The translations under genes were made by a program, and so were the position numbers. Below are positions 470-57,044 of a stretch of DNA of 64,000 nucleotides, one piece after another. Source of the stretch: Patescibacteria group bacterium (GTDB lineage: Bacteria > Patescibacteriota > Microgenomatia > Levybacterales > GWA1-39-11). The number at the start of each line of letters is the position of its first letter. Position 1 is the first letter of the stretch. The stretch covers positions 2,596-66,595 of the forward strand of contig DASZRG010000021.1 in NCBI GenBank assembly GCA_035549295.1, in the 5' to 3' direction. Below the pieces are notes generated by a model. That model made no database searches, had not been told where the DNA came from, and saw nothing but the letters and a program-made list of their open reading frames with translations.

Positions 470-590
470 AAGCAAAAATAGATATTAGATACTAGAGATT
501 AGATATTAGTAATTGTTGACGGGATGTTAATTTTGAATTTGCGTGAATTCTAATGTCTAGTATCTAGTTTCTAGTATCTCTCTTGGGGTG
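470..590. repeat. Inverted heptamer-repeat element, family A (A[CT]TAGAT units; arms gatattagatactagagattagatattag / ctaatgtctagtatctagtttctagtatc around a ~45 bp spacer)
   Basis: Directly visible tandem 7-mers forming a long imperfect palindrome. The same family recurs at 13205, 18262/18645, 19322, 20040, 50400 and 54600. Confidence 0.8.
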
Positions 591-3574: not shown

Positions 3575-3798
3575 AGAAACAATTATAACGAATACTGTCG
3601 AATGAATCCGAATTAGTTAGATTATGGGGTAGGAAATTGAACTAAGCGCCAAAAGCTAAAAGCCGAATGCAAAATTGGTGGTGTTCTTTGTTTTTTGTTA
3701 TACGCGGTTGCGTACGACCGAGCCTAATGCTCGAAGAAGGTAAGAACACCAGAAACCTTCTGTAGTTGCAGAAAAGCGTGCCGAGATGGCGATTTGAG

Positions 3799-4347
3799 CT
3801 ATGTAGCCGCTGTGCACTGGCCCATGCGAATGGTGCTGCCGTTTGGCGATTGACCAATCACAGATAGACCACCTAGACCGTTGTCACTTAACGACAGCGT
3901 GATATTCCCAACCGTGACGCTCGTCTTGTTGCTGTTGACGACAGCCTGAAGCTTGACCGGCGCGCCGTTAAAGAAGTAGAAAGCGGCCGTGGGGTCGCTA
4001 ATCGACTTGACGATCAAGATCCCAGTGGGCCCGGTTCCGTCGTCGGTTTTGCCTGGGGCAGCCCAGTGGCCGGTCCAGCCGCCAAGAAACTTGGCCTGGT
4101 CAGGGCTAATGCCATATCCAGCGGGTGTACCCGTGCTCATTTCGGGTGTGATAAGACCTTCCGAGATGAGCTCGTTGATCGGACCGCAGGTGTCGCTTGT
4201 GACACCGTCGGTCAAAACGTGGGCGCTCGACGTGAGCTGAATCGTCTGTGACTCGGCGTGCGCTGTGGGCGCCTGCTGAGAGATCATGGCGCCTGCAAAC
4301 AGCAAGGCTGTAATCACAAATAATCCTAAAAGAGTAGTACGAAACAT
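3799..4347 (-). CDS. Secreted small beta-rich protein, paralog family 'GxWxGxW' (lipocalin-like?), high-GC gene
   Basis: Signal peptide MFRTTLLGLFVITALLFAGAMISQQAPTAHA. ATG at 4347 is preceded by GGAGG. Motif KFLGGWTGHW is shared with ORFs 9722..10297 and 14405..14938. GC is clearly higher than in the neighbours. The track ORF extends upstream to 4398. Confidence 0.55.
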   Translation of the reverse strand: MFRTTLLGLFVITALLFAGAMISQQAPTAHAESQTIQLTSSAHVLTDGVTSDTCGPINELISEGLITPEMSTGTPAGYGISPDQAKFLGGWTGHWAAPGKTDDGTGPTGILIVKSISDPTAAFYFFNGAPVKLQAVVNSNKTSVTVGNITLSLSDNGLGGLSVIGQSPNGSTIRMGQCTAAT

Positions 4348-4645: not shown

Positions 4646-5947
4646 GTGGCAACAACAAGCAGAAGAAGTTTTCTTGAAATTATTCTCTCTATTTTATTCG
4701 CCTTAGTGGTCTTGTATGTAGCGGTTTATACATTTTTCTATAAGGTAAATACATCGAAGAGTAGTAGTTTTGGCACGTCTCCTATAATTGACGCAAGCAG
4801 TGTATATAACGGTTATCTTTTGATATCTCCATACAACAGACTTCTTGCTCAAAAACCAGAATGGAAGGGGAGCGTCTATCTTCTTGATATGAATGGTAAG
4901 CCAGTACACACGTGGAGTACCAATATGCAAGTTTTGTATTCACTTCTTGAGCCAGATGGCAAACTGCTTTCCGTTGCTGAACAGGCACGATACTCAAAAC
5001 TTTATCCGCCAGGTGGCAATACCGGCACTATCCAAGAACGCGATTGGAATTCGAATATCACGTGGGAGTACAAAAATGATGCAATGCATCATGACATAGC
5101 ACCGCTTCCAAATGGTAATCTGGCAGTAGCACTGTGGGAGCCAACACCACCTGATATTGCCACTCAGGTTGAGGGTGGAGTGAAAGGCACCGAATTGCCT
5201 GGCGGGCTTATCTGGTCTGACAAAATTATTGAAATTAATCGAGACAAAAAAATTGTTTGGTCTTGGGATGCCTGGCAGCATCTAGATCCAACGATAGACG
5301 TAATAGGGCCAGTTCTTCCTCGGTATGCTTGGACCTATACAAATGGCCTCAAATATATGGCCAAAAATCCTATTGACGGAACGCCCGCATATCTTGTCAG
5401 TATGAGGTCGCTAAGTGAAGTTTTAATCGTTCGAAAGTCAGATGGCGAGATAATATGGCGTTCACCAAAAGATCTTTTTAATCTGCAGCATGACCCAACT
5501 TATCTTGATAATGGGGATATTATGGTTTTTGACAATGGTCTAGATCGTATCCCTGCGCCATTTGCTGTTTATGGCTCGCGAGCAATAGAGATAAATCCAA
5601 AGACAAGCAAAGTTGTTTGGACACTAGATGGTGGAGCAGGGGCAATTGATAAGGTTCGTCTTTTTGCCGCAATAGTTGGCGGGGCACAGAGACTGCCAAA
5701 TGGTAATACATTGATAACTGATGGTCCCAAGGGTCACATATTTGAAGTGACGCCCGGCGGAAAGTTAGTGTGGGATATGATAAGCCCGTACAACACAGAG
5801 CAAACTGGACTTTTCCCAAACAATTTTTTGTTTAAAGCCCGAATTTATGGAGAAAACGAGATAAAGTGGCCTGCGAAAATTGCCCCAGCATTTGATAGTG
5901 TTGCGTTTAATCTCCACAACCTTTTATCAAAGATTTACCCAAACTAA
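4646..5947 (+). CDS. Arylsulfotransferase (ASST)-like beta-propeller protein with Tat-like/TM N-terminus
   Basis: N-terminus TSRRSFLEIILSILFALVVL resembles a twin-arginine motif followed by a TM helix. Repeated blades of the form W-x-(hydrophobic)...NGN/DNG (WEYKNDAMHHDIAPLPNGNLAV, IVWSWDAWQHLD, IIWRSP...DNGDIMVFDNG, VVWTLDGG...PNGNTLITDG) fit the ASST/PQQ-like propeller pattern. GTG start. Confidence 0.45.
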   Translation: MATTSRRSFLEIILSILFALVVLYVAVYTFFYKVNTSKSSSFGTSPIIDASSVYNGYLLISPYNRLLAQKPEWKGSVYLLDMNGKPVHTWSTNMQVLYSLLEPDGKLLSVAEQARYSKLYPPGGNTGTIQERDWNSNITWEYKNDAMHHDIAPLPNGNLAVALWEPTPPDIATQVEGGVKGTELPGGLIWSDKIIEINRDKKIVWSWDAWQHLDPTIDVIGPVLPRYAWTYTNGLKYMAKNPIDGTPAYLVSMRSLSEVLIVRKSDGEIIWRSPKDLFNLQHDPTYLDNGDIMVFDNGLDRIPAPFAVYGSRAIEINPKTSKVVWTLDGGAGAIDKVRLFAAIVGGAQRLPNGNTLITDGPKGHIFEVTPGGKLVWDMISPYNTEQTGLFPNNFLFKARIYGENEIKWPAKIAPAFDSVAFNLHNLLSKIYPN

Positions 5948-6046: not shown

Positions 6047-7345
6047 TTGTTTACATTTACTTTGCTTGATAATAATATAGACAGAATTATGACGGCGATG
6101 CAGATAGGCGAATTGATAGAAAATTTAGATCAGATAAAACTTGCACCTGAAATATATAAATACGATTCTTTTAACGATGAACCTCACTTTTACGGTTACA
6201 AGACGTACCTGGCACTTTCTAAAAAAATGACAGACGGCATTATGCAGCGCGGTATAGCTGGCGTGGGTACTTCTTTTCTCTCACCAGAAGATGCGCTTTC
6301 AAAGTCAATTTACGAGGCAATGGAGAGGCTTAATAATTTTACATATAAAAAAGCCGACCTAAAATATAGTTCATACGATAAAAATCAAGACAAATTCATA
6401 GACCCAGTTGCCTTTTTGTGTGATGTGAGCACTCGAGAGAAAAGACTAGGCTGGGTTGAAGGGGTAGAGTTGCTATCTGGAAAAAAGAAGTTTTTCCCCG
6501 CTCAGCTAACATATCTAAATTATACACTGCAAAAGAACGAGACATACCTTTCTTACCCTCATAACAGCAATGGCTCAGCAGGCGGCTCAACTCCCACGCA
6601 GGCAACTCTGCATGGCATCTATGAGCTAGTCGAGCGTGACTGTTTGATCACAGCATATTTGAATAAGATTTCGCTTCCAAGAGTTGATCTTGTATCTCTT
6701 CACGACAAGAAAATTGATGAAATTATGCTGCTTTGTCAAAAATACAGATTGGATTTTTTTGTGTTGGATATGACCAATGATTTAGGTATTCCATCATACA
6801 TTTCTTTCATGAATGACCATTTTGGTGGTCCGCCGATTGCCTTTGGGTGTAAGTCAAGTCTTCGTAGTCGAGATGCGATTTTTGGTGCAATTCTTGAGTC
6901 TCTCATGATAAGGATGTCTATAAAGCGCATGATTCGTGAGGGGACAATTTTTGGCGAACACGCCAAAAGTGGCGATTTGTTTGCCGATCGCGCGCGATAC
7001 TGGTTGTTTCCTGGAATGGCAAGTAAGCTTGATTTTTGGACGAAGAATTCAGGCTTTGCTAAAAGCCGCGATAATTTCAAAGGAAATCTGGATCATGAGC
7101 TTGAAGAAGTTGCCAGAAGACTCACAAGTCGCGGATTTAATATCTATGTTGTTGATTGCACAATCCCCGAATTTCGCAAATTAAATTTTTTTGTTCACAA
7201 AACTTTTATACCTGGTACTCAGACGCTTTACTTGCTTGAAAGTGAGAGGAGCTCGGCTATGGACTTAGGTCGCCTGAAGCAAGTTGCAAGCTTTTTTGGT
7301 AAAAAGTTTGTTAAGCCGAATAGTGTACCGCACCCCTTCTTATGA
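6047..7345 (+). CDS. YcaO-domain cyclodehydratase (TOMM/LAP 'D' protein)
   Basis: SNGSAGGSTPTQATLHGIYELVERD matches the YcaO signature (E. coli YcaO SNGLASGNT..AILHGL.EVIERD). ~430 aa and not fused to an E1-like C domain. Track start is TTG; ATG at 6086/6095 is a possible true start. Confidence 0.8.
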   Translation: MFTFTLLDNNIDRIMTAMQIGELIENLDQIKLAPEIYKYDSFNDEPHFYGYKTYLALSKKMTDGIMQRGIAGVGTSFLSPEDALSKSIYEAMERLNNFTYKKADLKYSSYDKNQDKFIDPVAFLCDVSTREKRLGWVEGVELLSGKKKFFPAQLTYLNYTLQKNETYLSYPHNSNGSAGGSTPTQATLHGIYELVERDCLITAYLNKISLPRVDLVSLHDKKIDEIMLLCQKYRLDFFVLDMTNDLGIPSYISFMNDHFGGPPIAFGCKSSLRSRDAIFGAILESLMIRMSIKRMIREGTIFGEHAKSGDLFADRARYWLFPGMASKLDFWTKNSGFAKSRDNFKGNLDHELEEVARRLTSRGFNIYVVDCTIPEFRKLNFFVHKTFIPGTQTLYLLESERSSAMDLGRLKQVASFFGKKFVKPNSVPHPFL

Positions 7346-8166
7346 AAAGTATCAAAAGTACCAAAGGTATCAAAGGTATCAAAAGTCGGCAGACGCTGAG
7401 ATTGGAGCAGATTTTGGGAAAGCCTATTTTTGAATTTCAAAAGTTTCATCAAATAACGAAAATTAAAAAACTCGGGCTACCAATAACAGTTAAATCTCTG
7501 GAAGAGGAGTCCAAGTATTATCCTGATGAGTGGAAAACTGTCTTTTTCAAAGGTTACTCACGATTTGAGGAGGTAAAATTACCAAAACCACAACTCAAGA
7601 ATTCAGTATCTTTAAAAAAAGTTTTGTTTGAACGACGTTCACGTCGCGAATTTTCAAAAAATCCATTATCCCGGAAGGATTTAAGTACGCTTTTTTATTA
7701 TAGTGTGGGAGTGAAGTCACCGGATTCAGGTCTGATAAGTAGATTCTATCCATCTGGGGGTGGACGGTTTCCTCTTGAAATATATTTTCTTCCTGTAAAT
7801 TCTGAATTACCGAAATTTTTTTATCACTATTATGTCAAAAATAATAGTCTTGAGAAAATGTTTGAGTTCAAAAAGCGCGATATGCAAAAGATAACTAACA
7901 TTGATTGGGTAAAAAATGCAGGAGGAATAATATTTATTACGGCAGTTTTTAATCGCACTACAATCAAATATGGTGAGCGTGGTTATCGACATGTTATGAC
8001 AGAAGTTGGCTTTGTTACGCAGAATTTCTGTCTCCTTGCATCGGCTCTCAACTTAGCTATTTGTCCGATAGGCGCATACGCAGATGACACTATTAACAAG
8101 TTTTTGGAACTTGACCCACTCTTGGAATCGGTTGTTGGAGTTTTAGTAGTTGGGAAAAATCGGTAG
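7342..8166 (+). CDS. SagB-type (nitroreductase-fold) azoline dehydrogenase (TOMM 'B' protein)
   Basis: RRSRREF motif and RFYPSGGGRFPLEIYF (SagB/McbC family R..PSxG..YP.E.Y). ATGA overlap with the YcaO stop. Confidence 0.8.
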   Translation: MKSIKSTKGIKGIKSRQTLRLEQILGKPIFEFQKFHQITKIKKLGLPITVKSLEEESKYYPDEWKTVFFKGYSRFEEVKLPKPQLKNSVSLKKVLFERRSRREFSKNPLSRKDLSTLFYYSVGVKSPDSGLISRFYPSGGGRFPLEIYFLPVNSELPKFFYHYYVKNNSLEKMFEFKKRDMQKITNIDWVKNAGGIIFITAVFNRTTIKYGERGYRHVMTEVGFVTQNFCLLASALNLAICPIGAYADDTINKFLELDPLLESVVGVLVVGKNR

Positions 8167-8207
8167 GATTTGACAGCTTGGTCGCAGGACTCTAAACTGT
8201 AATTGTA

Positions 8208-8708
8208 ATGGACAAGATTTTAAAAATTAGCATAGTGGTTTTGATCGCGTGTCTTGCGTTTGAAGTATATTATTTATATATCTATAAAACAGATAGCGGC
8301 ACTCGCTACGCTACACAGAAGCCTTCTATTAAAAAGCCCCAAAGTAATTCTGCGGTTAGTACGGGAATCACGAATTATATTGCAAGCTTCGATAAGAATA
8401 TTCTTAAAAAATCGGAAATATCAAATGAGATTGAGGGGAAAATCGCCAAGGTACTCGATGCTCCTGGTGTGATGAATCAATTCCAATATGAAAAGGGGCT
8501 GGCGATCGCGCGTTCCAATGGCCAGAGTGTAGTCAACTACTATTTTTTGAGAAAATCAGACATCCCTAAGCTGAAGGTGGTTCAGAATGGGCAAAATATT
8601 CAATTTTCAGATCTAAAAATAGGTGATACAATAAAAATCGAAGAAACAATGGATCTGCTTGCAGCACCAGGTAGTAATCGCGAGTCTGTTGAAATAGATA
8701 AATTATGA
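8208..8708 (+). CDS. N-terminally membrane-anchored hypothetical protein (cluster-associated)
   Basis: 166 aa with a single N-terminal TM helix. Its last 20 codons are part of the 410-bp duplicated unit that also contains precursor 1. Confidence 0.5.
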   Translation: MDKILKISIVVLIACLAFEVYYLYIYKTDSGTRYATQKPSIKKPQSNSAVSTGITNYIASFDKNILKKSEISNEIEGKIAKVLDAPGVMNQFQYEKGLAIARSNGQSVVNYYFLRKSDIPKLKVVQNGQNIQFSDLKIGDTIKIEETMDLLAAPGSNRESVEIDKL

Positions 8709-9034
8709 AGTACCAAAAACCAAAAATTATAAGTAAGAGAGTAAAGCTCAATATGTTTATATCCGATCGTTCCCGAAATTCACTTGCCTTCAATTTAGTT
8801 GGTCCAGTGTTTGCCCAAAGTACCGGAGGGGGCGGAGGAGTTGGTGGTGGCGGTGCGTCTTGTACCGGTGCAGCAGATAGTGGGTGCGGATTTTGTAATT
8901 GCGCTACCGCTTTTGGCTGTGGCGAGGGAGGTCAGGGAAGTGGCATTCATGGTGGTTGTGATGGCTCAGGCTGTGGGGGTGCTCCCACTTGTGATGGAAG
9001 TAATACTTGCGGTAGTGCGGGTGCACCTTCCTAA
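8705..9034 (+). CDS. RiPP precursor peptide 1 (microcin B17/LAP-like; 38-aa leader + Gly/Cys/Ser/Thr-rich core)
   Basis: MKYQKPKIISKRVKLNMFISDRSRNSLAFNLVGPVFAQ followed by STGGGGGVGGGGASCTGAADSGCGFCNCATAFGCGEGG...CGSAGAPS. 12 Cys in a Gly-rich core, adjacent to YcaO/SagB. Confidence 0.7.
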   Translation: MKYQKPKIISKRVKLNMFISDRSRNSLAFNLVGPVFAQSTGGGGGVGGGGASCTGAADSGCGFCNCATAFGCGEGGQGSGIHGGCDGSGCGGAPTCDGSNTCGSAGAPS

Positions 9035-9115
9035 ATTTACTCATAGCGTACTCGTTTCCATGGATCTGCTTGCAGCACCAGGTAGTAATCGCGAGTCTGT
9101 CGAGATAGATAAATT

Positions 9116-9454
9116 ATGAAGTATCAAAAACCAAAAATTATAAGTAAGAGAGTAAAGCTGAATATGTTCATATCCGATCGCTCACGCGACTCACTTGCCT
9201 TCAATTTAGTTGGTCCAGTATTTGCGCAGAGTGCTGGCGGCGGCGGTGGTGGAGGCGGCGGAACCACTGGATCTTGCACCGGGGCTGCTGCTGGTGGGTG
9301 CGGATTTTGTAATTGTGCAACTGCCTTTGGTTGCGGACCAGGAGGCTCAGGAAGTGGTGTTCACGGTGGTTGTCAGGGATCAACCTGTGGTGGTGCCCCC
9401 ACTTGTGATGGAAGTACTACTTGCGGTACATGTTTGGGCGGTCCCGGAAGCTAA
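9116..9454 (+). CDS. RiPP precursor peptide 2 (tandem paralog of precursor 1)
   Basis: Near-identical leader and a diverged Gly/Cys-rich core (13 Cys), part of a 410-bp tandem duplication. Confidence 0.7.
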   Translation: MKYQKPKIISKRVKLNMFISDRSRDSLAFNLVGPVFAQSAGGGGGGGGGTTGSCTGAAAGGCGFCNCATAFGCGPGGSGSGVHGGCQGSTCGGAPTCDGSTTCGTCLGGPGS

Positions 9455-13207: not shown

Positions 13208-13320
13208 TAACTAGTAACTAGAGATTAGATACTAGATATTAGGAAACTCGCACAAATAGGACATCGTGACCAGATGGTACTCTAAATTTCTATTTACTAA
13301 TATCTAGTTTCTAGTATCTA
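13205..13320. repeat. Inverted heptamer-repeat element, family A
   Basis: ctagtaactagagattagatactagatattag ... ctaatatctagtttctagtatctagtc around a ~55 bp spacer, between convergent genes. Confidence 0.8.
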
Positions 13321-13575
13321 GTCTATAATGCCTTTCGACTTTAGGTCTTTTAGGAATTCGGAGAGGTCGGAGTGCGCTTCTTTTTCCGAAATTTTGTACT
13401 TCTCAACGAGGTTTTTTAGTATTTCGTGCTCTTCTTGGCCATGTTTTAGTTGATTAAAGATAAACGTCGCTGTGTCATTGAATGTATGAAATACCGATTT
13501 TTCGCTATCAAAAATCTTGAGTTTTTGGCCTAATTTATCGCTAATTATTCCCTTTTTAATCTTGTGTTTTGCCAT
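13318..13575 (-). CDS. PqqD-family protein (RiPP recognition element, RRE)
   Basis: 85 aa. KIFDSEKSVFHTFNDTATFIFNQLKHGQEEHEILKNLVEKYKISEKEAHSDLSEFLKDLKSKGII fits the PqqD/RRE fold pattern. Confidence 0.7.
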   Translation of the reverse strand: MAKHKIKKGIISDKLGQKLKIFDSEKSVFHTFNDTATFIFNQLKHGQEEHEILKNLVEKYKISEKEAHSDLSEFLKDLKSKGIID

Positions 13576-14342
13576 TTTGTTGTAATTGCCTTGAATGATT
13601 CTACTATTATAGATTTGTCTTTGGGAAAGTACAACGAGTTAACATTTCTAAATGTGTCGGATAAGGCTAATAGATTTTTTACAATTTCCGAATCAGTGAT
13701 GGTCAGTTGCTTGAGAAGTTTTCCAAACGTATCTTCCTTGTTTGACTTTTTCTCAAGTCTAAATTGTTTTGATTTGTGAATAAAATAAATTCCTTTAAGT
13801 TTATATCGCTTGTTGGATTTATAAATTCGATTTTTTTCAACAAATGGGTGTTGATAAAGAAAATACTCTCTGTCGATTCGTCTTACTATCGAAGTATCAT
13901 CTGATAGAGCAGTGAAGTCCTGAGATAATAGTTCGGCAATCGTTGATTTGCCAGCGCCAGATGGTCCCGTAAACAAATAAGCATCATTTTTGTATGCGAC
14001 CGCCGAGGAGTGGATTATCATACCGTTATGTGCGGAGCATAGTAAATAGATCACATTCTCAAGTATTATTTTATAGGTTAAATAGTCTTGATAGTAGACA
14101 GTAACTTTATTTTTTAACTTCTTATCAAATGCAAGAAGCAGTCTTTTGTCTGATGCAACATTATATGGTTGATCCTCAAATTCTATATAAAAATCACACG
14201 TCCCCGTATTGCGTCTTACGATGAACTCACTGACGTAATTTGAAAAATCTACTTTGTATTGTTTGTATAGATCTTTTTGACGAGAATTTTTGAATGTTGC
14301 TTTTATTATGAAGTCTGCGATTTTTATGTAAATAAATTCCAT
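13545..14342 (-). CDS. HPr kinase-related P-loop kinase (HprK-rel family)
   Basis: FTGPSGAGKSTIAELL Walker A followed by LSDDTSIV, as in the HprK C-terminal-like fold. 31-bp overlap with the pqqD-like start suggests coupling. Confidence 0.6.
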   Translation of the reverse strand: MEFIYIKIADFIIKATFKNSRQKDLYKQYKVDFSNYVSEFIVRRNTGTCDFYIEFEDQPYNVASDKRLLLAFDKKLKNKVTVYYQDYLTYKIILENVIYLLCSAHNGMIIHSSAVAYKNDAYLFTGPSGAGKSTIAELLSQDFTALSDDTSIVRRIDREYFLYQHPFVEKNRIYKSNKRYKLKGIYFIHKSKQFRLEKKSNKEDTFGKLLKQLTITDSEIVKNLLALSDTFRNVNSLYFPKDKSIIVESFKAITTKWQNTRLKRE

Positions 14343-14404
14343 AGGGAAATATTAACATAACGCTCATTCTTGACAAGTAGAGGTTTATTTTTCTAACATA
14401 GGCT

Positions 14405-14938
14405 ATGGAGTCTCCTAAGCCAAAATCGTCACTTCTGACAGCGCTAGGAATTGAAGTAGTTGTAATAGTGGTTTTAACAATTCTTATAGTCAGTGCACTT
14501 AATTATTTCAACGTAATTTCGCTTCCACAAGCATCAATATTGCCGCACGAGAATGCAAATAAGGCTCCAGCTGTAACTGCTATCAATCAGTGTGCTCCTC
14601 TTCCGAAAGGAGCTGTTACAAAAGTTATTTCGCCAACATCAAGTGTTTCTGCGGCACTAGCAGCCTATTCTGGTACATGGAAAGGGTCATGGAATCCTCA
14701 ATATAGATCTGTTCTAATTATTCGTGATATAACTCCTAAGTACGCAACTGTTGGCTATTTTGTAAACGGAGTACGAGTTTTAGCAGCAATGCAGTTTTCA
14801 ATAGACGAGAGTAATAGGCTTATTGCGCCTAACAATCTCATGACTTATGAGATGAAGCAAGACGGAATCCACGGATCTATACTTTATAGATCTGGTGCTG
14901 TTGCCTCAACTGTTGTAATGACCCGCTGCACGCCGTAG
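14405..14938 (+). CDS. Membrane-anchored/secreted small protein, GxWxGxW paralog
   Basis: N-terminal TM and motif YSGTWKGSW. Shares downstream beta-strand pattern with 3799..4347 and 9722..10297. Confidence 0.5.
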   Translation: MESPKPKSSLLTALGIEVVVIVVLTILIVSALNYFNVISLPQASILPHENANKAPAVTAINQCAPLPKGAVTKVISPTSSVSAALAAYSGTWKGSWNPQYRSVLIIRDITPKYATVGYFVNGVRVLAAMQFSIDESNRLIAPNNLMTYEMKQDGIHGSILYRSGAVASTVVMTRCTP

Positions 14939-16201: not shown

Positions 16202-16266
16202 ATATATAGAGTAGCAGAGTTGTGGTACTGATTGACATTCTTTTTTCGAAGTTGTTAGTATTAATC

Positions 16267-18261
16267 ATGAGGTCATTTCTGACTCGGTTGAGTCCTGCTC
16301 TCTTAATTGTTCTTCTGCTTGTATCAACTGTTGTTCCCAATGTCCAGGCCCAATATGGCGGCTCGTGTCAGCCTACTTATACTGGTGCTTGTAGTACTGA
16401 TTCCGATTGTTGTTCGGGTTGGTGTAGTTTTGGAACATGTGCTGATCCGGGTGGTGGAGGAGGATCATTTAATATAACAGGAACAGTTTTTGTAGATACT
16501 AATAGAAATAAAGTTTGGGACTCAGGTGAGACAGCATATACGGGTGCGAATGCAGTTTTGAATTTTGTCGGATATTCAAATACTACAACAACGGCGGCAA
16601 ATGGGACCTATTCATTTAATGGTATTACCGGGGGAAATTATCAGATTCAGTTAGTTCCGCCGACTGGGTATGGTGTTACAACGCTCAATCCATATACAGT
16701 TAGTCCAACATCGTCTGTTGCTAATTTTGGAATCGCTGAATCGTATACAATTTCTGGCCATGCATATTATGACGATAACGGTAATCAGCAGCAGGATTGT
16801 GTGGGATCTTGTAACAACGGAACGGGAGATGAAAAAAATTTCCAAGGGATAACCTTTAAAAGGACTGGAACGGCTGCAAATAGCATAGCGACCTCGTCGG
16901 CAAATGGTAACTTCACTTTTTATGATCTTTTGCCAAGAAGCTATACTGTTACGATGACTGTCCCCCCCAATTATTCTGTAACAACAGCAAATAATCCTAA
17001 GACAGTGACGCTTGGTCCAAATGCAACTATTAATTATGGTCTTCGTCAGACTTCGTGTATACCAGGTGGGGCAACTCTTTCGGGTACCGTTTATGTAGAT
17101 GGTAGTAATGGGGCTTGCGGTAGCTCTTTAACTACGATAGGGTCAGGTGCGACAGTCACCGTTAGAACGAGCTCCGGGGGGGCTGTTACTGCAACTGGCT
17201 CAACTAACTCGAGTGGGCAGTATACAATAAATGATAATACTGCTTGTGGTCAAAAAAGTGTGTCGTTATCAAATGTTGCCCTCAATTATACATCTGCAAA
17301 GTGTGTGAGGCTTGATGGTGGAGCGTGGACCTCAACAGGTCTCACTGGATTTACATACAACCCTCTCAATTTCTCGTCCAATCATACACTTGATTGGTAT
17401 CTATCATCGTCGGTTCCGTGGTTTCAGACCGGTGACGGAGACGTCCGATTTGGTAATTTGGTTGATTCTCTTCCGTCCGCTTCCGCCGTGTCATCAAATG
17501 CAAATTCAGCTTTCTTTTCATCAGCATTCATCCCGACATTTGGAGCGGGAAATCCTGTAGGCTTTGTGATCAGCAACGAATATTCATATAATGCGGATCC
17601 TGAGACTAAAAACGGTCTTTTCTCGTACTCATTCTTTATTAATCGTGCAAAAGTCAAATCAGTTACAGTCACTAACTTAGTTGGAACTCCCGGAGTAACA
17701 AATTGTACTGGCGCAACTTGTGACATAAGTAATTTGCCAACCGGTATATACAAATATGATGGTGATCTGACTCTTACTTCCTATACTCATCTTGACGGCG
17801 CACACGTACTACTTCTTGTCAATGGAAATCTACTTATTAAAACGACCGGAAATATTAAAGTTGCCGCTGGAAGAAAAAATCTGTTTATTATTGCTGCCAA
17901 AAAAGACATAAACATAGATCCATCAGTTGGTGCAGCAGCGCCAGCCGCTCCTTGTGGAACAAATGCCTGTACAAATCTCGAGGGTATATACACAGCAGAA
18001 GGTAGCATCAATCTTCAGGGCACCAAGTGCTCTGACAATGTTACGCCAGACAAGCAATTTACTCTCGCGGGAAGCTTTGTCACAAATGCTCTAAAGCCAC
18101 TCAAAGTTGGTGGAGCAGGAATATTTAACAATAATAGATCACTCTGTGGCGGAGACCAGACATATCCTGTGTTTGTTACTCAATCAAGGTATGACTTTGT
18201 TCCTCAGCTAACAGACTTCTACAAGATCCCCGCCGTGAGATGGAAAGAGGTCAATCCTTAA
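16267..18261 (+). CDS. Large secreted Cys-rich protein with SdrD/Cna-B-type repeat domains
   Basis: Signal peptide MRSFLTRLSPALLIVLLLVSTVVPNVQA. GTVFVDTNRNKVWDSGETAYTGANAVL...ANGTYSFNGITGGNYQIQLVPPTGY is SdrD B-like. ATG at 16267 is internal to track ORF 16222..18261. Confidence 0.6.
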   Translation: MRSFLTRLSPALLIVLLLVSTVVPNVQAQYGGSCQPTYTGACSTDSDCCSGWCSFGTCADPGGGGGSFNITGTVFVDTNRNKVWDSGETAYTGANAVLNFVGYSNTTTTAANGTYSFNGITGGNYQIQLVPPTGYGVTTLNPYTVSPTSSVANFGIAESYTISGHAYYDDNGNQQQDCVGSCNNGTGDEKNFQGITFKRTGTAANSIATSSANGNFTFYDLLPRSYTVTMTVPPNYSVTTANNPKTVTLGPNATINYGLRQTSCIPGGATLSGTVYVDGSNGACGSSLTTIGSGATVTVRTSSGGAVTATGSTNSSGQYTINDNTACGQKSVSLSNVALNYTSAKCVRLDGGAWTSTGLTGFTYNPLNFSSNHTLDWYLSSSVPWFQTGDGDVRFGNLVDSLPSASAVSSNANSAFFSSAFIPTFGAGNPVGFVISNEYSYNADPETKNGLFSYSFFINRAKVKSVTVTNLVGTPGVTNCTGATCDISNLPTGIYKYDGDLTLTSYTHLDGAHVLLLVNGNLLIKTTGNIKVAAGRKNLFIIAAKKDINIDPSVGAAAPAAPCGTNACTNLEGIYTAEGSINLQGTKCSDNVTPDKQFTLAGSFVTNALKPLKVGGAGIFNNNRSLCGGDQTYPVFVTQSRYDFVPQLTDFYKIPAVRWKEVNP

Positions 18262-18690
18262 GCTAGATATTAGTAACTAGATATTAGGATTTTCGCTGCG
18301 GAGTGGTCATTTTATTTAGCATTCTCATTACTTCATCAAGTAATCTGTCAGCTTTTTCAAAATCTCGAACTTCGTCGAAAGATAATTTTTTGGATATTAA
18401 AATTTGGGTTTCAAGTTCACAACCAGAACCAAAAGATATTAAATAGAATTGATCCTTTTCTTTATGAGTTTTTCTCCCAAAACCTTCTGCTATATTAGAA
18501 GGGATAGAAACTACTGCCCGTCTCATTTGCATTACAATTCCGAATAATTCCGATTTAGGAAAATTACTTGTTATTCTATAAATTTCAACTACAAGTTCAA
18601 TAGATTTTTGCCAGACAATTAATTCCTTATATGACTTCATGTTAATCCTAGTATCTAATATCTAGTATCTAGTTTCTAGTGTTATAATAT
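18262..18690. repeat. IVS-like cassette: four-helix-bundle gene bracketed by ~27-bp inverted family-A heptamer arrays
   Basis: Left arm ctagatattagtaactagatattagga (18265-18291) and right arm tcctagtatctaatatctagtatctag (18648-18674) are near-perfect reverse complements. Confidence 0.7.
18284..18640 (-). CDS. Four-helix-bundle protein (23S rRNA intervening-sequence protein / Avd-like family)
   Basis: WQKSIELVVEIYRITSNFPKSELFGIVMQMRRAVVSIPSNIAEGFGR matches the TIGR02436-type consensus (W.k...l...iY.lt..FPk.E.ygL.sQlRRAa.SI..NIAEG.gR). Confidence 0.8.
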   Translation of the reverse strand: MKSYKELIVWQKSIELVVEIYRITSNFPKSELFGIVMQMRRAVVSIPSNIAEGFGRKTHKEKDQFYLISFGSGCELETQILISKKLSFDEVRDFEKADRLLDEVMRMLNKMTTPQRKS

Positions 18691-18697
18691 CTCTGTG
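18683..18697 (+). promoter_or_regulatory. Possible -10 box (TATAAT) 6 nt upstream of the pth GTG: candidate leaderless transcript
   Basis: gttataatatctctGTG, with no SD sequence. Confidence 0.3.
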
Positions 18698-19321
18698 AAG
18701 GTCATAGTTGGACTAGGCAATCCAGGAGAGAAGTATGAGAAAACTCGCCATAATTTGGGTTTTCTTGCGACAGAAGCGTTACTTGAGAAATGGGAAAGAC
18801 TCGATAAAACATTTTGGGATGATAATCACAACCTCAAATCACATATCAAAAAGATCAGAATCAAGAATCATGAATCAGGAATCAAGGATCAGGACATTCT
18901 ACTCGTTAAGCCGGCGACTTTTATGAATAACTCAGGTTTTGCGGTTTCAAAAGTGTTGAATTATTTCAAAGTTGAACCCGCTGACTTATTCGTAATTCAT
19001 GATGATCTAGATCTTCCGTTTGGCAAGATACGAGTGAGGTTTGGTGGTGGGGCAGGGGGCCATCACGGGGTCGAGTCGATCATCGAACAGCTTTCAACCG
19101 ATAAATTCTTGCGTATTAGACTAGGAATTGGTAGTCCAAAACATATCGAAGGAAAAGAAGTGAAGAGTAAAAATCATCAAAATGTTGACGATTATGTGCT
19201 TGGGAATATCACAGGTGCTTCTCGTGGGAAAGTAAAAACAATGCTTCACGAGGCCGTCAAAATAGTCGATCAGCTCCTTGAACACGGCATAGATACGTAT
19301 ATGAGTAAGTACAATAAGTAG
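18695..19321 (+). CDS. pth: Peptidyl-tRNA hydrolase with in-frame heptamer-repeat insertion
   Basis: VIVGLGNPGEKYEKTRHNLGF is the Pth N-terminal signature. A 14-codon insert (KIRIKNHESGIKDQ) is encoded by AATCA[ATG]G heptamers. Confidence 0.85.
   Translation: MKVIVGLGNPGEKYEKTRHNLGFLATEALLEKWERLDKTFWDDNHNLKSHIKKIRIKNHESGIKDQDILLVKPATFMNNSGFAVSKVLNYFKVEPADLFVIHDDLDLPFGKIRVRFGGGAGGHHGVESIIEQLSTDKFLRIRLGIGSPKHIEGKEVKSKNHQNVDDYVLGNITGASRGKVKTMLHEAVKIVDQLLEHGIDTYMSKYNK
18855..18900 (+). repeat. AATCA[ATG]G heptamer tandem array (6 units) in frame inside pth
   Basis: atcagaatcaagaatcatgaatcaggaatcaaggatcaggac. 42 nt keeps the reading frame. Confidence 0.8.
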
Positions 19322-19400
19322 ATACTAGTGACTAGATACTAGATATTAGTTGTTTAAGATGTGTATTTGCTAGTAGCTAGTATCTAATATCTAGTTTCTA
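19322..19400. repeat. Inverted heptamer-repeat element, family A
   Basis: gatactagtgactagatactagatattag ... ctagtatctaatatctagtttctaactag. Confidence 0.8.
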
Positions 19401-19401
19401 A

Positions 19402-20034
19402 CTAGACTTTTCCAGCTAGGGGATTTTTACCGCGGATTTCTTTGTTTGTTATCTTTCCATCTGAGTCTATTTGATAGACATACGCTTCGCCTGTACCTAT
19501 TTCAAGTCCAGAGATTTTGTCCTCTGGTATATTTTCGAGATATTTAACTAGTGCTCGAAGTGCATTGCCACTTGATGCAATAATAATGTTTTTACCATTT
19601 TTAAGTTGTGGTTCAATTTCTTTTTGATAATATGGAAGTGCTCTTTCGTAAACTTCTTTAAGAGATTCTCCTGATGGGATAGGGTAGTCCCAACTGCGTC
19701 TGATTTGTTGGAAGACTTCTTCGCCGACCTCTTCCTTTACCTGCCATTTATTTTTGTTGCTAAAGTCTCCGTAGTTTCTTTCATTAAGTTCCCAGGCAAC
19801 AGTTGTTGGGATGTCGGTTTGACCAATTGTTTTTTTAACTTCATCGAGTGTCTCTTTGGCTCGCCTTAAGATAGAGGTAAATGAAAGGTCAAACTCAATA
19901 TCTTTTAGTTCTTCGCCAGTTTTTTGAGCTTGTTCAACTCCTTCGGGGACAAGGCTGGGGTCAATCCAACCACACCAAAGACCCTTTTTGTTGTATTCGG
20001 ATAATCCATGTCGGACGAGTACGAGATAAGCCAT
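19402..20034 (-). CDS. gpmA: 2,3-bisphosphoglycerate-dependent phosphoglycerate mutase (short form)
   Basis: LVRHGLSEYNKKGLWCGWIDPSLVPEGVEQA is the histidine-phosphatase RHGxSxWN motif region. Confidence 0.75.
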   Translation of the reverse strand: MAYLVLVRHGLSEYNKKGLWCGWIDPSLVPEGVEQAQKTGEELKDIEFDLSFTSILRRAKETLDEVKKTIGQTDIPTTVAWELNERNYGDFSNKNKWQVKEEVGEEVFQQIRRSWDYPIPSGESLKEVYERALPYYQKEIEPQLKNGKNIIIASSGNALRALVKYLENIPEDKISGLEIGTGEAYVYQIDSDGKITNKEIRGKNPLAGKV

Positions 20035-20039: not shown

Positions 20040-20115
20040 GTATAGGGATATTAGTAACTATAGACTAGTAACTAGCAATTTCTAATATCTAGTATCTAAT
20101 ATCTAGTTTCTTAAG
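20040..20115. repeat. Inverted heptamer-repeat element, family A
   Basis: gggatattagtaactatagactagtaactag ... ctaatatctagtatctaatatctagtttc. Confidence 0.8.
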
Positions 20116-20116
20116 T

Positions 20117-21358
20117 CTAGATGCCTGCTTCGATTTCAAGAAGGCGATTGTATTTTGAAAGTCTTTCGGAACGTGACATTGAGCCTGTTTTTATAAATTC
20201 AGATCCGCATGCATAGGCTAGATCGGCTATAAAATTGTCCTCAGTCTCCCCACTTCTGTGAGAAATTGCAGTTGCCCAGCCGGCTGCATGTGTCATGTTG
20301 ATGGCTTCAGCAGTCTCTTTGATAGAGCCAATTTGATTTACCTTTACTAGAACTGCAGTTGCAGCACCCTCGTCAATTCCTTTTTGAATTCTTTTAGGAT
20401 TTGTGACAAAAAGATCGTCACCGATAGTTGTAAATTGGAATTTGCGCGCCATATCACCAAATATTTTGTGGTGTTCCCAGTCGTCTTCTGCAAAAGCATC
20501 CTCAAAGGAGAGTATTTTGTATTTCTGGCCAATTTCTTGGTAATATTTGGTGAGTTCTTCACCAGTTAATGATTTACCGATCTTGTGCATTTCGTACTTA
20601 CCATCTTTAAAGAATTCAGTTGATGCAACATCAAGTGATAGACGATAATCTTTAACATTTTCATATCCAGCATTCTTTGCAGCTTCTATTATTGTATCAA
20701 GTACTTCTTCGTCGCTTGATAGAGCAGGTGAGTAGCCTCCCTCATCTCCGACGAGTGTTGAGAGACCCTTTTTCTTGAGAGTTTTTCCTAGATTATGGAA
20801 AATTTCAGCTGCAATTCTAATTGATTCAGAGGGGGTTTTTGTATTTGGGACAACCATAAATTCCTGGATATCGAAATTCCAGTCAGCGTGTTTACCACCA
20901 TTTACTATATTAACGAGTAGATTGGGGAAGTTGGGCTTAGTGTCTTTGAAGTAGTATTCATTCATGAATTTCCAGAGCGGCTTGCCTGCTGCGTGTGCTG
21001 CTGCGCGGACTACGGCTTGTGATATTGCGAGGATCGCATTTGCGCCAAGATTGGCTTTATTTTCGGTCCCATCAAGCTCAAGCATGATTTCATCTATCGT
21101 GTTGGGATCAGGCTCAAGACCTGTGATTTTTGGAGCTATTTTAGTGTTTACGTTGTCAACCGCTTTGGTGACGCCCTTACCAAGGTATTTTGACTTATCT
21201 TCATCGCGTAGCTCTACTGCTTCGTGAGATCCAGTTGATGCTCCTGATGGCACAGATGACTGGTGAGTTGAGTCATCATCAAGTGTGACGTATGCGCGGA
21301 CAGTAGGATTGCCGCGAGAGTCTAGTATCTGAATGGCGCGAACGGACTTTATATTCAT
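20117..21358 (-). CDS. eno: Enolase (phosphopyruvate hydratase)
   Basis: MNIKSVRAIQILDSRGNPTV..., and SHRSGETED. True start is the ATG at 21358; the track extends to TTG 21394. Confidence 0.93.
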   Translation of the reverse strand: MNIKSVRAIQILDSRGNPTVRAYVTLDDDSTHQSSVPSGASTGSHEAVELRDEDKSKYLGKGVTKAVDNVNTKIAPKITGLEPDPNTIDEIMLELDGTENKANLGANAILAISQAVVRAAAHAAGKPLWKFMNEYYFKDTKPNFPNLLVNIVNGGKHADWNFDIQEFMVVPNTKTPSESIRIAAEIFHNLGKTLKKKGLSTLVGDEGGYSPALSSDEEVLDTIIEAAKNAGYENVKDYRLSLDVASTEFFKDGKYEMHKIGKSLTGEELTKYYQEIGQKYKILSFEDAFAEDDWEHHKIFGDMARKFQFTTIGDDLFVTNPKRIQKGIDEGAATAVLVKVNQIGSIKETAEAINMTHAAGWATAISHRSGETEDNFIADLAYACGSEFIKTGSMSRSERLSKYNRLLEIEAGI

Positions 21359-41296: not shown

Positions 41297-44200
41297 TTAT
41301 TTATTAACGTTTCTTCGCTTCAGGAGCTTGATTACTACTGCTACCGTGGCTGCAAAGAGCAGTAAGAATCCAGCATATTCTAAATATTGCGGCATGTAGA
41401 CAATTAGTATCTGGGTGTTAGCGCTTAGGGGTTGGGTGTTAGAATTTATTTCCCAGGCGTTCTCCCACGAATTGAGCTCGACATGTGTTTTAATTTCACT
41501 CCCGAATATAAAGGGAAATGCCGCCGCGAGATTCTTCATTATTCCTTCTTCATTATTCTTTATTCGGTATGCATGCCATCCCGCATCATATGACTGCGCG
41601 AGTACCAAAATGCCGTTTGGATTGGGATTTTCGGCAAGATTTACGATATAAAGACTCTCATTTGGATGTGAGATATTATCTATTTTAAGATTGTTTTGAG
41701 TCGAGCTTGCTTTTGGAAGCCCGAGCGAGATATTTGTCAAGAAATTGTATGGAATAGGGTGGACCTCGAGCTTTTTGAGCGTATTTTGATTGATATCATG
41801 ACCTATCGAGCCATTGTCAAAATGGAATGAGTAGCCAAGGCCACCAGCTGCCGCTGGCGGCAAAACAAAGCTTTCAAGCCCAGCACCCGACAGGTATGTA
41901 TCTATTGGAGATGTTTTTTCGTCTTCGTTGAGTATCCAGAAATGAAATGGTCGACCCGCTATTTTGTCGGAATTAACAAAGACCGCATAGCCTTGATCTG
42001 AGAAAAGACTACCTAGATAAAATGACAAACATTCGGTTGTGTTTGCGGATCTTACCATTATTGCACCAGTGTTGTCAGTTGAGAGCGTATTTTGGCCATT
42101 TCTGAAGTTATTGCAGGCACTTGTTGTGGCATTTGATCCCTTCGTGTTAAGTGCGAAATAAGGGTCGTTTACGCGCGGTAGAACTACTGTAATTGTATGG
42201 GGGCCAGAGCTTATGGGCAATACAACGCTTTGATTTATACTTGTAGAAAGTGACTCAGGTGTTAGGTTTATCTCGTTTAAAATGTTTTTTGATGAAGCGA
42301 CAATTTGGTTGTTTTGCGCAAGTGATAGGACGGAGTCGCCTAGTAAGTCGCCTTGATTTTTGTCTTTTACAACAACTTGAGATACACCGTTAACATTTAT
42401 CACGACAGGGTATACTGCTTCGCGTGGCAAAGTTACAACAGGAACATTCAAGTCATGCTCGAGAATTGTTTTCCCATCAATCGTAATTTTTGGTACGGAG
42501 ATCGAAGCTGTAAGTAGAATATTGCCTTTACTATCAATGCTTTTATAAAAAGTGACAGGAATATTTTTTTCGAGATTTTGGTAGTTTGGTATCACGATTT
42601 GCGAGGCATTTTTTAGGATAAGGTTTGTTGAAACTGTTATATTCTTGTCGTTTTCCGTGACCTTAAAATCATTGTCTGTTTGTTTTTCAGAAAATAGCGA
42701 CCCGAATGGATATACTAGGCAGTCTTGAGTTTTTGCACAGTCCGAATTTATATAATTACCAAGAGTTGAGTAGGCCGGATCTATTGTTTTCCAAAAAGGA
42801 ATATCAACATTTTGCAGGTCAGTTGTGGTAGATGAGACAAAAGATTTTGGATTACTTTTGAGAGCATATCTGTATATTTTTATTTTTCCAAACTGTGCTG
42901 CAAGTCTGATACCGGGAATTTCAGAGATCAATTTTTCAGTCTCAGGATACATTAGGCTTTTGGCGGAGGCTGGGTATATGACGTTTTCATCAAGAAGTAA
43001 CCAAGTTGCCTGGTATTTATCAAGGATATTTTGAAGCCGTATTGGATCCCTTGAGTATAGGGCGCTTGATGCCTCCCAGTAGTAATTTTCAGAAGTAGCA
43101 GACCAGACATCAAAAGCGCGGTCAAGAATAGGCTGTTTTATTCCATACCAAATAAAACCAGATCCACCCATTCCGTATCCGTAGTTGGTCCATCCCCAAA
43201 ATGTAGGTTGTGGTAGGTTGGCAATACGCGTTGCCTGGTCTTGATGCTTGAAGAAGTCAAATGTTCTGAAATACTCATTGGGTATTGCTAGTCGCTCTTT
43301 GTTGTAGAAAAGATTGCCGGTGAAGATGGGCCAGGAGATAAAGATGATTAATGAATAAAGAATAATGAAGAACGAATAATGATATCTCTTCTTGATTCTT
43401 GATTCCTGATTCTTGATTCCTTGATATATCTCCTGTGATCCTATTGCGAGCATCAGTGAATATGCGAGGCCTGCCATAAGCGAGAATTTGGTGAATGGGA
43501 AGCGGAAGACTTGGGAAAATAGGGGTATTTTTTGAAACAGTGCAAAAACTATTGAGAATGGAAACGCATCGGTTGCGAGCATAGTAAATCCGAAAGTAAA
43601 CAAGGAAATAGTAAATAGTAAATAGTCACTAGTTTTCTTCCGTTCGCGCTTTCTGAACAAATTCCAAATGGGAATTAACATTATGATAAATAAAAGATAA
43701 CCGGAGAGGGTTACGAGGGGATTTGCGAAGTGGGAACGCCATGGGGCGAGCATAAACATGTTATTTCCATTGATGTCAGGATCGACGTTGTTGAACCAAA
43801 ATCCTTTAAGAAGTGGAGTATCAAGCAAGTTGCCAAACTCTTTATTTTGCTCAAAAATATTGGCGGTTGCCATCTGATTGATCTTAGCGTTGACGTTGAC
43901 CCGAGAGTTTTGAAGGGTAAAAAGAGCAAATGGCGCGAGCCAATATGCGTTTACCACAAGAAGCGTCAGGAGAATAATAAGCGATCTTTTAAATATTTCG
44001 ATGCGATTTTTGTTTGTCAATAGTTTGACGAAACATAAGAGCGCGATAACCATGCAAGTTACGACAAAAATAGTTGGTACATAAAATGATGGGATTGAGA
44101 GCACGAAAACGACAAACATGAAGGCAAAAGTCTTTTTTTCAGGCTTTTGCATGTATTTTGCAACGGATAAAATGATCCATGGAAGCGCGGCAAAGTGAGC

Positions 44201-46799: not shown

Positions 46800-46804
46800 G
46801 ATTG

Positions 46805-50399: not shown

Positions 50400-50450
50400 G
50401 TTAAAGAACAAACTAGAGACTAGATATTAGAAACTAGATACTAGATCTGC
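50400..50450. repeat. Family-A heptamer repeats
   Basis: caaactagagactagatattagaaactagatactagatc. Confidence 0.75.
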
Positions 50451-51399: not shown

Positions 51400-51910
51400 T
51401 TGATAAGTATCAAGAGTATCAAAAGTACCAAGGGTATCAAGAGTATGTAAAAGAAGTGAAAGAATTTGTGGAATCCTGTAAGATATTAGTATGGACCGTG
51501 CGTCAAAAAGCTACAGGATGCTAATATTATGGGAAAAGCTGTGTAACTTGGTCAAATTCACATATAAATTGGTGGATTTGTTGCCTAGATCAGAAGATTT
51601 AGGCTTAAAGTCTCAGATGCGAAGGGCAGTAGTGTCTGTAATATCCAATTTTGTAGAAGGTTATTTGAAGTCAAGCACGAAGGAAAAACTGCACTTTCTA
51701 GAGATTGCGCAAACGTCACTACTTGAACTTGAGGCTCAGGCTGAAGTATGTCTGATGCTTAGCTACTGGTCTGAGGCTAATTATGAAGAATTCGAGCGTA
51801 TCAGAGCTGAAGCTGGCTATTTCCTACATAGATATAAGGCTAAAATCGCTTCTTAGCGCATTAGCCCTTGATACTTGTGGTACCCATGATACCCCTTGAT
51901 ACCTTCCGAA
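51400..51910. repeat. IVS-like cassette: four-helix-bundle gene bracketed by inverted GTATCAA-type heptamer arrays
   Basis: Left arm gtatcaagagtatcaaaagtaccaagggtatcaagagtat (51401-51446). Right arm gatacttgtggtacccatgataccccttgatacc (51870-51905) is its approximate reverse complement. Confidence 0.65.
51491..51856 (+). CDS. Four-helix-bundle protein (23S rRNA IVS protein / Avd-like family)
   Basis: LPRSEDLGLKSQMRRAVVSVISNFVEGY matches the same consensus as 18284..18640. Confidence 0.8.
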   Translation: MDRASKSYRMLILWEKLCNLVKFTYKLVDLLPRSEDLGLKSQMRRAVVSVISNFVEGYLKSSTKEKLHFLEIAQTSLLELEAQAEVCLMLSYWSEANYEEFERIRAEAGYFLHRYKAKIAS

Positions 51911-53811: not shown

Positions 53812-53839
53812 TTCAATTTCCTCTCTTCAGGTCGTAGAT

Positions 53840-56929: not shown

Positions 56930-57010
56930 TTAGTGAATCAGGAAGCAAGAATCATGAATCAAGGAATTAGCTTTTGATACCCTTGATACCTTTGATACTT
57001 CTGATACTTT
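56930..57010. repeat. Mixed heptamer arrays (AATCA[AG]G then GTATCAA reverse-complement)
   Basis: aatcaggaagcaagaatcatgaatcaaggaattagc ttttgatacccttgatacctttgatacttctgatac. Confidence 0.75.
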
Positions 57011-57044
57011 TCTAAATTGCGACCACGATGTTCCTCTCCAGGTG

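Follow-up and report, generated by a model that had tools for sequence, protein, structure and literature searches.

The 64,000-nt stretch analysed here, which we call the window (contig DASZRG010000021.1 of a Patescibacteria group bacterium, assembly GCA_035549295.1, positions 2,596 to 66,595), contains two genes for four-helix-bundle (4HB) proteins of the PF05635 family, each enclosed between inverted arrays of short tandem repeats. The feature is real, and is a free-standing, family-wide form of a known type of element, the intervening sequence (IVS): a 4HB gene is usually accompanied by inverted arrays of about four 7-9-nt units with a TAG core that abut the stop codon of a host gene. We consider it reasonably probable that the two loci are free-standing members of the class of 23S rRNA IVSs that carry an open reading frame (ORF), namely cassettes that are co-transcribed, translationally insulated and looped out.

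The family PF05635 is very large, is annotated throughout Bacteria and is homologous to Avd of diversity-generating retroelements (DGRs), and its function has remained unassigned since IVS ORFs were described in 1993; one family search returned more than 4000 relatives. The association described here gives this large orphan family a concrete nucleic-acid partner, as a protein-plus-cognate-repeat system, and makes the rRNA IVSs a special case of an array-plus-4HB structure. It also matters for annotation, in that the arrays supply host stop codons, may be taken for repeats of another class and are located within operons, cas loci among them. A literature search found no description of free-standing PF05635/4HB genes as inverted-heptamer hairpin cassettes; it did not extend to the curators' notes for TIGR02436 and in CDD, and informal prior knowledge is possible.

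The two cassettes of the window

Both ORFs named in the initial annotation are present, and their identity as 4HB genes is borne out by matches to PF05635 and TIGR02436. The genes and their arms are as follows.

18260..18291, strandless: arm of cassette 1 at the stop-codon side, units TAGATAT/TAGTAAC; starts right after the TAA stop of a 679-aa gene (16222-18261)
18284..18640, minus strand: 4HB gene 1, 118 aa, PF05635/TIGR02436, isoelectric point (pI) 9.3; antisense to both neighbouring genes
18644..18680, strandless: arm of cassette 1 at the start-codon side, CTAGTAT x 4.7
51407..51446, plus strand: 5' arm of cassette 2, four to five 9-nt units of GTATCAAGA type
51491..51856, plus strand: 4HB gene 2, 121 aa, PF05635/TIGR02436; antisense to both neighbours
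51865..51905, plus strand: 3' arm of cassette 2, CCCTTGATA-type units

Protein 1 matches the PF05635 profile with 121.6 bits (E 2.1e-35) and protein 2 with 89.8 bits (E 1.6e-25), against a cut-off of 33.8, and the corresponding TIGR02436 scores are 113 and 84.3 bits (cut-off 24). The two proteins are 36% identical to each other. The conserved motif of the family, GxxRxxxSxxxNxxE (Zhang 2013), is represented in protein 1 by R41, S45, N49 and E52 and recurs with identical spacing in protein 2, the leading G being replaced by Q in both. The AlphaFold model of protein 1 (predicted local distance difference test score, pLDDT, 93.3) consists of four helices that form a four-helix bundle. Its best solved neighbour is Xcc0516 (2GSC; template-modelling (TM) score 0.87, root-mean-square deviation 1.0, 40% identity), an entry that the family profile itself matches at E 7e-32, followed by BT_0352 (2RLD) and then Avd (TM 0.72-0.79, 10-12% identity). 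Entries 2GSC and 2RLD each hold five chains, and 2GSC is published as an assembly of five four-helix bundles, according to a reference cited in PMC10053308. Members of the 4HB family are basic, with a median pI of 9.3 and a net charge of about +4 per monomer. Comparison of gene 1 with its ortholog at locus L084, from another lineage of the candidate phyla radiation (CPR), gives a non-synonymous divergence (dN) of 0.14 and a synonymous divergence (dS) of about 2.0 (dN/dS about 0.07), which indicates at the sequence level that the gene is under strong purifying selection and that its protein is functional.

The inverted repeats of cassette 1 (18260-18291 and 18644-18675) are 32 nt long, 81% complementary and 352 nt apart, and are built of 7-nt tandem units of the CTAGATA/CTAGTAT type; those of cassette 2 (51407-51434 and 51865-51892; 28 nt, 82% complementary, 430 nt apart) are built of 9-nt tandem units, GTATCAAGA and CCCTTGATA (period 9 and 4.6 copies in Tandem Repeats Finder (TRF)). 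The initial annotation had placed both genes between inverted heptamer arrays; the inverted arrays stand for both, and the heptamer stands for cassette 1 and falls for cassette 2. The long stem with the ORF in its loop, which had also been proposed, is found in the predicted structures: the minimum free energy folds of 18255-18695 and 51395-51915 have paired arms and a loop that contains the ORF (whole-region z -2.1 and -3.3), and the arm-only duplexes, at -26.8 to -48.2 kcal/mol (z -6.8 to -8.7), were matched by 0/300 shuffles. In both cassettes the arm duplex is 7-8 kcal/mol more stable on the strand of the host genes. An AGGA sequence stands 8-11 nt ahead of the ATG of gene 1, within the loop-proximal end of the stem of cassette 1.

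Inverted repeats of this quality are few in the window, where only 11 (with loops of up to 650 nt) reach the score of the cassette arms, and among those 11 the only two with a loop of more than 100 nt that tightly fits a small ORF are the two 4HB genes. A further long-loop pair, 18652-18678/19319-19345, is made up of arms of two neighbouring hairpins, joined across pth.

Arrays and 4HB genes across the family

A family profile search of one-genome-per-species contigs yielded 80 4HB loci, from CPR lineages, Bacteroidota, Planctomycetota, Acidobacteriota, Elusimicrobiota, Ignavibacteria, deltaproteobacteria and others. For the 77 usable 4HB genes, and for 176 other ORFs from the same loci as controls, an inverted-repeat score was obtained by alignment of the 120 nt upstream with the 120 nt downstream in reverse complement. 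Its median is 15 for the 4HB genes and 8 for the controls (Mann-Whitney p 3e-24), and 66% of the former reach a score of 13 or more, as against 5% of the latter; moreover, three of the six top-scoring controls are divergent PF05635 genes and one is a PDDEXK_3 (GxxExxY) gene.

A TRF array (period 5-12, within 130 nt) lies upstream of 67/79 4HB genes and downstream of 50/79, and arrays are found in 29/146 control segments. The period of the upstream array is 7 in 43, 8 in 14 and 9 in five of the 67 loci, the copy number has a median of 3.7-4.0, and the spacing is tight, with a median of 15 nt from the end of the upstream array to the ATG and of 6 nt from the 4HB stop to the start of the downstream array. 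Unit sequences vary between genomes. A TAG core is present in 44/67 upstream unit consensuses (13 expected from composition) and CTA in 29/50 downstream ones (10 expected); in base composition the 5' arm has C 0.10 and G 0.27, and the 3' arm G 0.10 and C 0.27. The polarity is fixed, in that the TAG-bearing, C-poor arm is the 5' arm on either strand, and the ORF-less tandem-unit hairpins in the fetched loci that have a bias follow it, with 17 TAG-first and two the other way. Because such a hairpin looks alike from either strand, its polarity belongs to the hairpin itself and does not reflect how the gene is oriented; the bias for a TAG arm upstream and a CTA arm downstream of the gene (37 vs 8) describes the hairpin only, and we rejected it as co-orientation of gene and arms. 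A Shine-Dalgarno motif is weakly represented in the 5' arms, with the core motif in 17/52 loci.

When the comparison is started from the arrays, 70 ORFs are found that are bracketed by arrays and fill their loop, and 62 of these are 4HB genes by hidden Markov model (HMM) and one more (a 118-aa ORF of L062) by Pfam, in a sample that is enriched for 4HB genes, half of its loci having been fetched via a 4HB gene. The layout recurs in a cultured organism, Nostoc punctiforme, where in pNPUN02 a TCAGGAG x4 array stands before the 4HB gene and CTCCTGA-type units stand after it, within a co-directional string of genes. None of the 40 4HB loci checked for location lies in rRNA (0/40), so that in this family the free-standing state is the rule.

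The cassettes are closely fitted to their host genes. A median of 43 nt lies between the stop of the upstream gene and the 4HB start, and a median of 31 nt separates the 4HB stop from the start that follows. Spaces of this size leave no room for a promoter, so that transcription of the cassette together with the host genes is probable; in 50/68 cassettes the 4HB gene runs in the direction of both its neighbours. The stop of the upstream co-directional ORF is TAG in 34/53 loci, and the array starts a median of 3 nt before the end of the stop codon. Within the window, the TAG stops of pth (19319-19321), gpmA (19402-19404, minus strand) and eno (20117-20119, minus strand) lie in or abut arrays of CTAG units. 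With a period of 7 or 8, three units present TAG in all three frames, so that the arrays stop translation entering from either side, and since the TAG arm is 5' on either strand, host genes from either side usually end on an array TAG. The arrays may in this way serve as translational insulators, which would make insertion at a gene end harmless.

These comparisons bear on the explanation by coincidence, that the arrays are ordinary gene-end hairpins (terminators or mRNA stabilizers) of repeat-rich genomes and that the 4HB genes merely happen to lie between two of them. Such hairpins do stand at several gene ends of the window, pth and gpmA are likewise 'bracketed' by arms of neighbouring hairpins (-37.6 and -26.6 kcal/mol), and 20% of control segments of these genomes contain a tandem array. 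However, each window cassette has exactly one arm on each side, with its partner across the ORF, and the excess of flanking inverted repeats holds across phyla; loop-filling ORFs between arrays are overwhelmingly 4HB genes, albeit in the enriched sample; the arms co-vary with the phylogeny of the ORF, as described below; and the scan for terminators found no terminator-like sites in 18000-19500 and no GC-rich stem with a T-run at the cassettes. We regard coincidence as largely refuted and consider it very improbable.

The hairpins and solo arrays of the window that lack a 4HB gene are listed here.

479..579, strandless: ORF-less hairpin, CTAGATA unit family, loop about 31-37 nt
13217..13322, strandless: ORF-less hairpin, CTAGATA unit family, loop 46 nt
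19319..19400, strandless: ORF-less hairpin, CTAGATA unit family, loop 20 nt; carries the TAG stops of pth and gpmA
20047..20107, strandless: ORF-less hairpin, CTAGATA unit family, loop 7 nt; between gpmA and eno, the eno TAG stop being in a CTAG unit just past its 3' arm (20116-20119)
50412..50446, strandless: solo array, CTAGATA family, 1 kb from cassette 2
54599-54629: array, CTAGATA type
7341..7386, plus strand: solo array of the cassette-2 9-mer family, GTATCAAAA x 5, in the first codons of a nitroreductase ORF
56974..57011, plus strand: solo array of the cassette-2 family in opposite orientation, TTGATACCC type

Tandem arrays of 7- or 9-nt units within called coding sequences are found at 18857-18894 (pth), 43344-43425 (a 1095-aa gene) and 7341-7386 (the nitroreductase gene), where the 9-mers translate as a K-S/G-I repeat.

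Intervening sequences and rival explanations

One of the closest known counterparts is the IVS in the 23S rRNA gene of Coxiella burnetii, whose terminal inverted repeats make up a 28-bp stem, which carries three tandem GACAGAT heptamers upstream of its S23p (PF05635) ORF, and which is cleaved by RNase III within the stem, at the first repeat (PMC4990558). An old suggestion recounted in the same paper is that the IVS is a mobile element and that its ORF aids mobility; the Coxiella ORF is apparently decaying and unexpressed (PMC4990558). PF05635 ORFs have also been noted between cas genes (Zhang 2013), and they occur in insertions of CPR 16S and 23S genes.

Like the ORF-bearing 23S IVSs of Leptospira and C. 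burnetii, the window cassettes combine a PF05635 protein with a stem of terminal inverted repeats, about 28-32 bp long, that encloses the ORF, and cassette 1, unlike cassette 2 with its 9-nt units, has arms of tandem heptamers as in Coxiella. Unlike the 23S IVSs, they lie between protein-coding genes and not in helix 9, 25 or 45 of 23S rRNA, and in contrast to the apparently decaying Coxiella ORF the 4HB proteins here are under purifying selection. The statement in the initial annotation that no rRNA is nearby holds, since there is no Rfam match anywhere in the 64-kb window and the flanking genes are protein-coding. Thus the inverted-repeat stem with the ORF in its loop and the tandem-heptamer arms of an IVS are both found, and the rRNA location is not. 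The interpretation offered there, of free-standing mobile IVS-like cassettes, is partly supported: the stem-loop anatomy matches that of the Coxiella IVS and speaks for it, but a position outside rRNA is not exceptional in a family that has its free-standing copies as the norm.

We propose that a cassette, laid out as an array of about four tandem 7-9-nt units, the 4HB ORF and an inverted array, would be transcribed together with its host genes, and that the arms would form a stem of about 30 bp in the RNA that loops out the ORF. In its geometry this stem corresponds to the substrate of RNase III in the rRNA copies, as shown for Coxiella (PMC4990558), and the cassette could be excised from the host transcript with no need for religation; for the window cassettes, cleavage by RNase III is suggested by the geometry of the modelled stem alone. 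The 4HB protein may bind periodic units, either in its own arms or in ORF-less hairpins, and recognition of these units by a basic pentamer is suggested by analogy with Avd and TRAP-like rings. TRAP-type ring proteins bind periodic (G/U)AG triplets. The likeness to TRAP is one of analogy only, between a ring oligomer and an RNA with a conserved NAG triplet at a fixed period with variable spacers; the TRAP fold is unrelated to the 4HB fold. Finally, cassettes may turn over as units, arms together with ORF, among sites at gene ends, and ORF-less hairpins would then be leftovers or sources of cassettes.

Several observations weigh against this proposal. About a third of the 4HB family members have no detectable inverted arms. 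Both window cassettes belong to the class in which the 4HB gene is antisense to both neighbours, which comprises only 4/68 loci, and co-transcription would therefore yield antisense RNA at these two cassettes; promoter scans of the window cassettes found no convincing promoter of their own, and the promoter and terminator scans alike gave counts close to, and no better than, those of shuffles. The TAG core is also present in 4/6 9-nt units, where all three frames cannot be covered, and so an all-frame stop is not the whole reason for it. The apparent decay of the Coxiella ORF means that the protein is dispensable in at least one lineage. As to a mechanism of mobility, no recognizable catalytic or recombinase motif was found in 4HB and no target-site duplication is evident. 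Lastly, the mismatches in the arms carry no RNA-strand signal, being G:U-compatible in 56 cases on the sense strand and 74 on the antisense strand, and the lack of a sense-strand wobble excess leaves room for a role of the inverted repeats at the DNA level.

Such a role is the main rival, though we think it unlikely. The arrays would then be protein-binding or recombination sites, such as cruciforms or single-strand hairpins like integron attC or the repetitive extragenic palindromic (REP) sequences that flank RAYT genes, with 4HB as a DNA-binding partner and the loop inverted or exchanged by recombination between the arms. Besides the wobble result, the basic charge of the 4HB protein and the occurrence of the ORF in either orientation at the same site are in keeping with it, and the scatter of ORF-less hairpins with the same units over the window recalls REPIN/RAYT. 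With respect to the 4HB gene, pth has opposite orientations in the window and in L084, as recombination would give between arms of the kind that flank pth in the window (18648-18678 and 19319-19349, from two neighbouring hairpins; 31 nt, 84% complementary). However, the sole member of the class to have been studied experimentally is processed at the RNA level, by RNase III excision from 23S pre-rRNA (PMC4990558), and Avd, the closest characterized relative, works as part of an RNA-protein complex (8UB7); features of HUH, tyrosine or serine recombinases are absent from 4HB; and the ratio of nine ORF-less to 13 ORF-bearing hairpins, in 346 kb of loci chosen via pth, is unlike the large amplification of REPINs. 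In more general terms the cassettes resemble REP/REPIN and RAYT systems in that a small gene stands between inverted copies of a short repeat, which also gives rise to intergenic hairpins without an ORF, and differ from them in that the 4HB protein is no HUH nuclease, each arm consists of 7-9-nt units in tandem and not of a single REP palindrome, and the ORF-less copies are not highly amplified. No HUH (Y1) transposase was found in the flanked gene, the protein profile search giving PF05635/bAvd matches only. The intergenic heptamers of cyanobacteria (short tandemly repeated repetitive sequences, STRR) and of Beggiatoaceae (TAACTGA) form direct arrays upstream of start codons (PMC4679880); they are similar in being intergenic tandem heptamers near gene ends, but the arrays here are inverted pairs that enclose a 4HB ORF, and no link to 4HB is described for them.

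The homology with Avd raises a further alternative, that the 4HB genes are Avd accessory genes of a DGR whose reverse transcriptase (RT) and template and variable repeats (TR/VR) lie elsewhere. The proteins do resemble Avd (PDB 4DWL, 8UB7) in their four-helix-bundle fold, their basic charge and the five chains per entry with which the family crystallizes, and weak matches to the bAvd/DivGenRetAVD models and the TM scores noted above point the same way. These matches are nevertheless far under the curated cut-offs (NF033474, 22.8 and 28.5 bits against 80; PF22296, 23 and 23.9 bits against 40), and the identity to Avd is only 10-12%. The search for an RT used the 79,046-nt contig record CAZMXU010000036.1 (GCA_964570355.1), and positions given for it are those of that record: no RT domain is among the precomputed Pfam hits of the genes at 2846-34144 and 46995-77231, many small genes there being hitless, and in the stretch between them none was found by a Pfam scan that covered five of the larger ORFs. 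The sole long direct repeat, at 8649-9428 (also given as 8649-9261), has 8/23 mismatches at A, which is not adenine-specific, and corresponds to two Cys/Gly-rich precursor-like genes beside a YcaO gene. The earlier observation that no RT or TR/VR pair is visible holds for the contig genes covered, and with Avd scores below cut-off, no RT domain on record and no adenine-specific TR/VR we rejected identity as a DGR Avd; the alternative has almost no remaining probability.

Possible turnover at gene ends and further observations

The closest relative of protein 1, P0003 (79-80% identity), is encoded directly after pth in L084 (3954-4410), in a cassette with the same TAGATAC/CTAGTAT units as in the window and whose first TAG is the pth stop. 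The counterpart of this cassette in the window is the ORF-less hairpin 19319..19400, with nearly identical arm ends, and 4HB gene 1 lies on the other side of pth in a separate hairpin. The position was surveyed in 80 contigs fetched through Pth alone, and among related CPR contigs the site downstream of pth is occupied by four different 4HB cassettes, in either orientation, by three ORF-less hairpins or by nothing, including the following.

L092 and L096, minus strand: 4HB cassettes, ACTGACA units
L103 and L116, plus strand: 4HB cassettes, TCAGTT-type units
L138: 4HB cassette, GCGTAAAG-type units
L094 and L095: ORF-less hairpins, units of still other kinds

The pth-downstream position is thus a hot spot in related CPR contigs. 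Across 54 cassettes the similarity of the arms rises with the identity of the proteins (Spearman 0.20, Mantel 0/500), as against 0.07 for a control segment 400 nt away. The patchy occupancy of one orthologous site, together with arms that track the phylogeny of the ORF, suggests that the cassettes are mobile.

Cassettes and hairpins may also stand side by side, as in Planctomycetota L059, where, of three successive gaps between genes, one contains a 4HB cassette, one an ORF-less hairpin built of that cassette's units and one a PDDEXK_3 cassette of other units. GxxExxY/PDDEXK_3 (PF13366) genes occur in inverted tandem-array cassettes at L059 (5226-5695) and in plasmids of Bacteroides and Bernardetia, and two others have direct-repeat flanks, the loci concerned besides L059 being L178, L179, L180 and L181; an AATCCG(C/T)G motif recurs across phyla in the arms of GxxExxY genes. 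Among six further plasmid GxxExxY genes, clear inverted tandem arrays flank two, a short inverted repeat flanks one and direct repeats flank two or more, so that the idea of these genes as an alternative cargo of the same cassette is only partly supported.

It is conceivable, if rather doubtful at present, that PF05635 genes and inverted TAG-unit arrays together constitute a pan-bacterial selfish class of RNA-level 'introns without splicing', which would enter rRNA helices or the ends of genes, stop translation of the host by TAG in all frames, be looped out and cut by RNase III and be recognized at their periodic UAG units in TRAP-like fashion by a basic pentamer, with ORF-less hairpins as non-autonomous derivatives and GxxExxY (PDDEXK_3) genes as alternative cargo. 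Were this so, the IVSs of rRNA, described since the early 1990s, would make up no more than the conspicuous part of a pan-bacterial class of cassettes.

Two observations concern the arms of particular loci. Those of L029, L059, L034 and L056 (CPR, Planctomycetota, Elusimicrobiota and Peribacteria) have near-identical units of TAGGGGA(T/C)AGGG type, although identity between the 4HB proteins is only 45-56%; either horizontal spread or convergence could account for this. The 4HB gene of L174 (pCC7120alpha of Nostoc PCC 7120, 3776-4126) adjoins transposase genes and has a downstream array only (CCTCTGC x6), and judged from its sequence is a cassette that has lost one arm.

Positions 46000-64000 of the window have a G+C content of 0.48-0.58, compared with 0.36-0.44 elsewhere, and carry about 25 small genes without a Pfam match, all on the minus strand; cassette 2 occupies a low-GC islet (50.2-52.0 kb) within this region. 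A chimeric contig is an unlikely cause of the jump in G+C content at 46 kb, because CTAGATA-type arrays are also present at 50412-50446 and 54599-54629. An intergenic element of about 300 nt is present in three copies, at 54810-55011, 59970-60188 and 61951-62272. A gene cluster resembling those for ribosomally synthesized and post-translationally modified peptides (RiPPs), in this CPR genome, spans 6047-9454 and 13545-14600, with PqqD and ScmC genes nearby and an arylsulfotransferase gene (4646-5947) upstream; its main genes are these.

6047-7345: YcaO
7342-8166: nitroreductase-family gene
8705-9034 and 9116-9454: Cys/Gly-rich precursor-like ORFs in tandem, 89% identical over 202 nt

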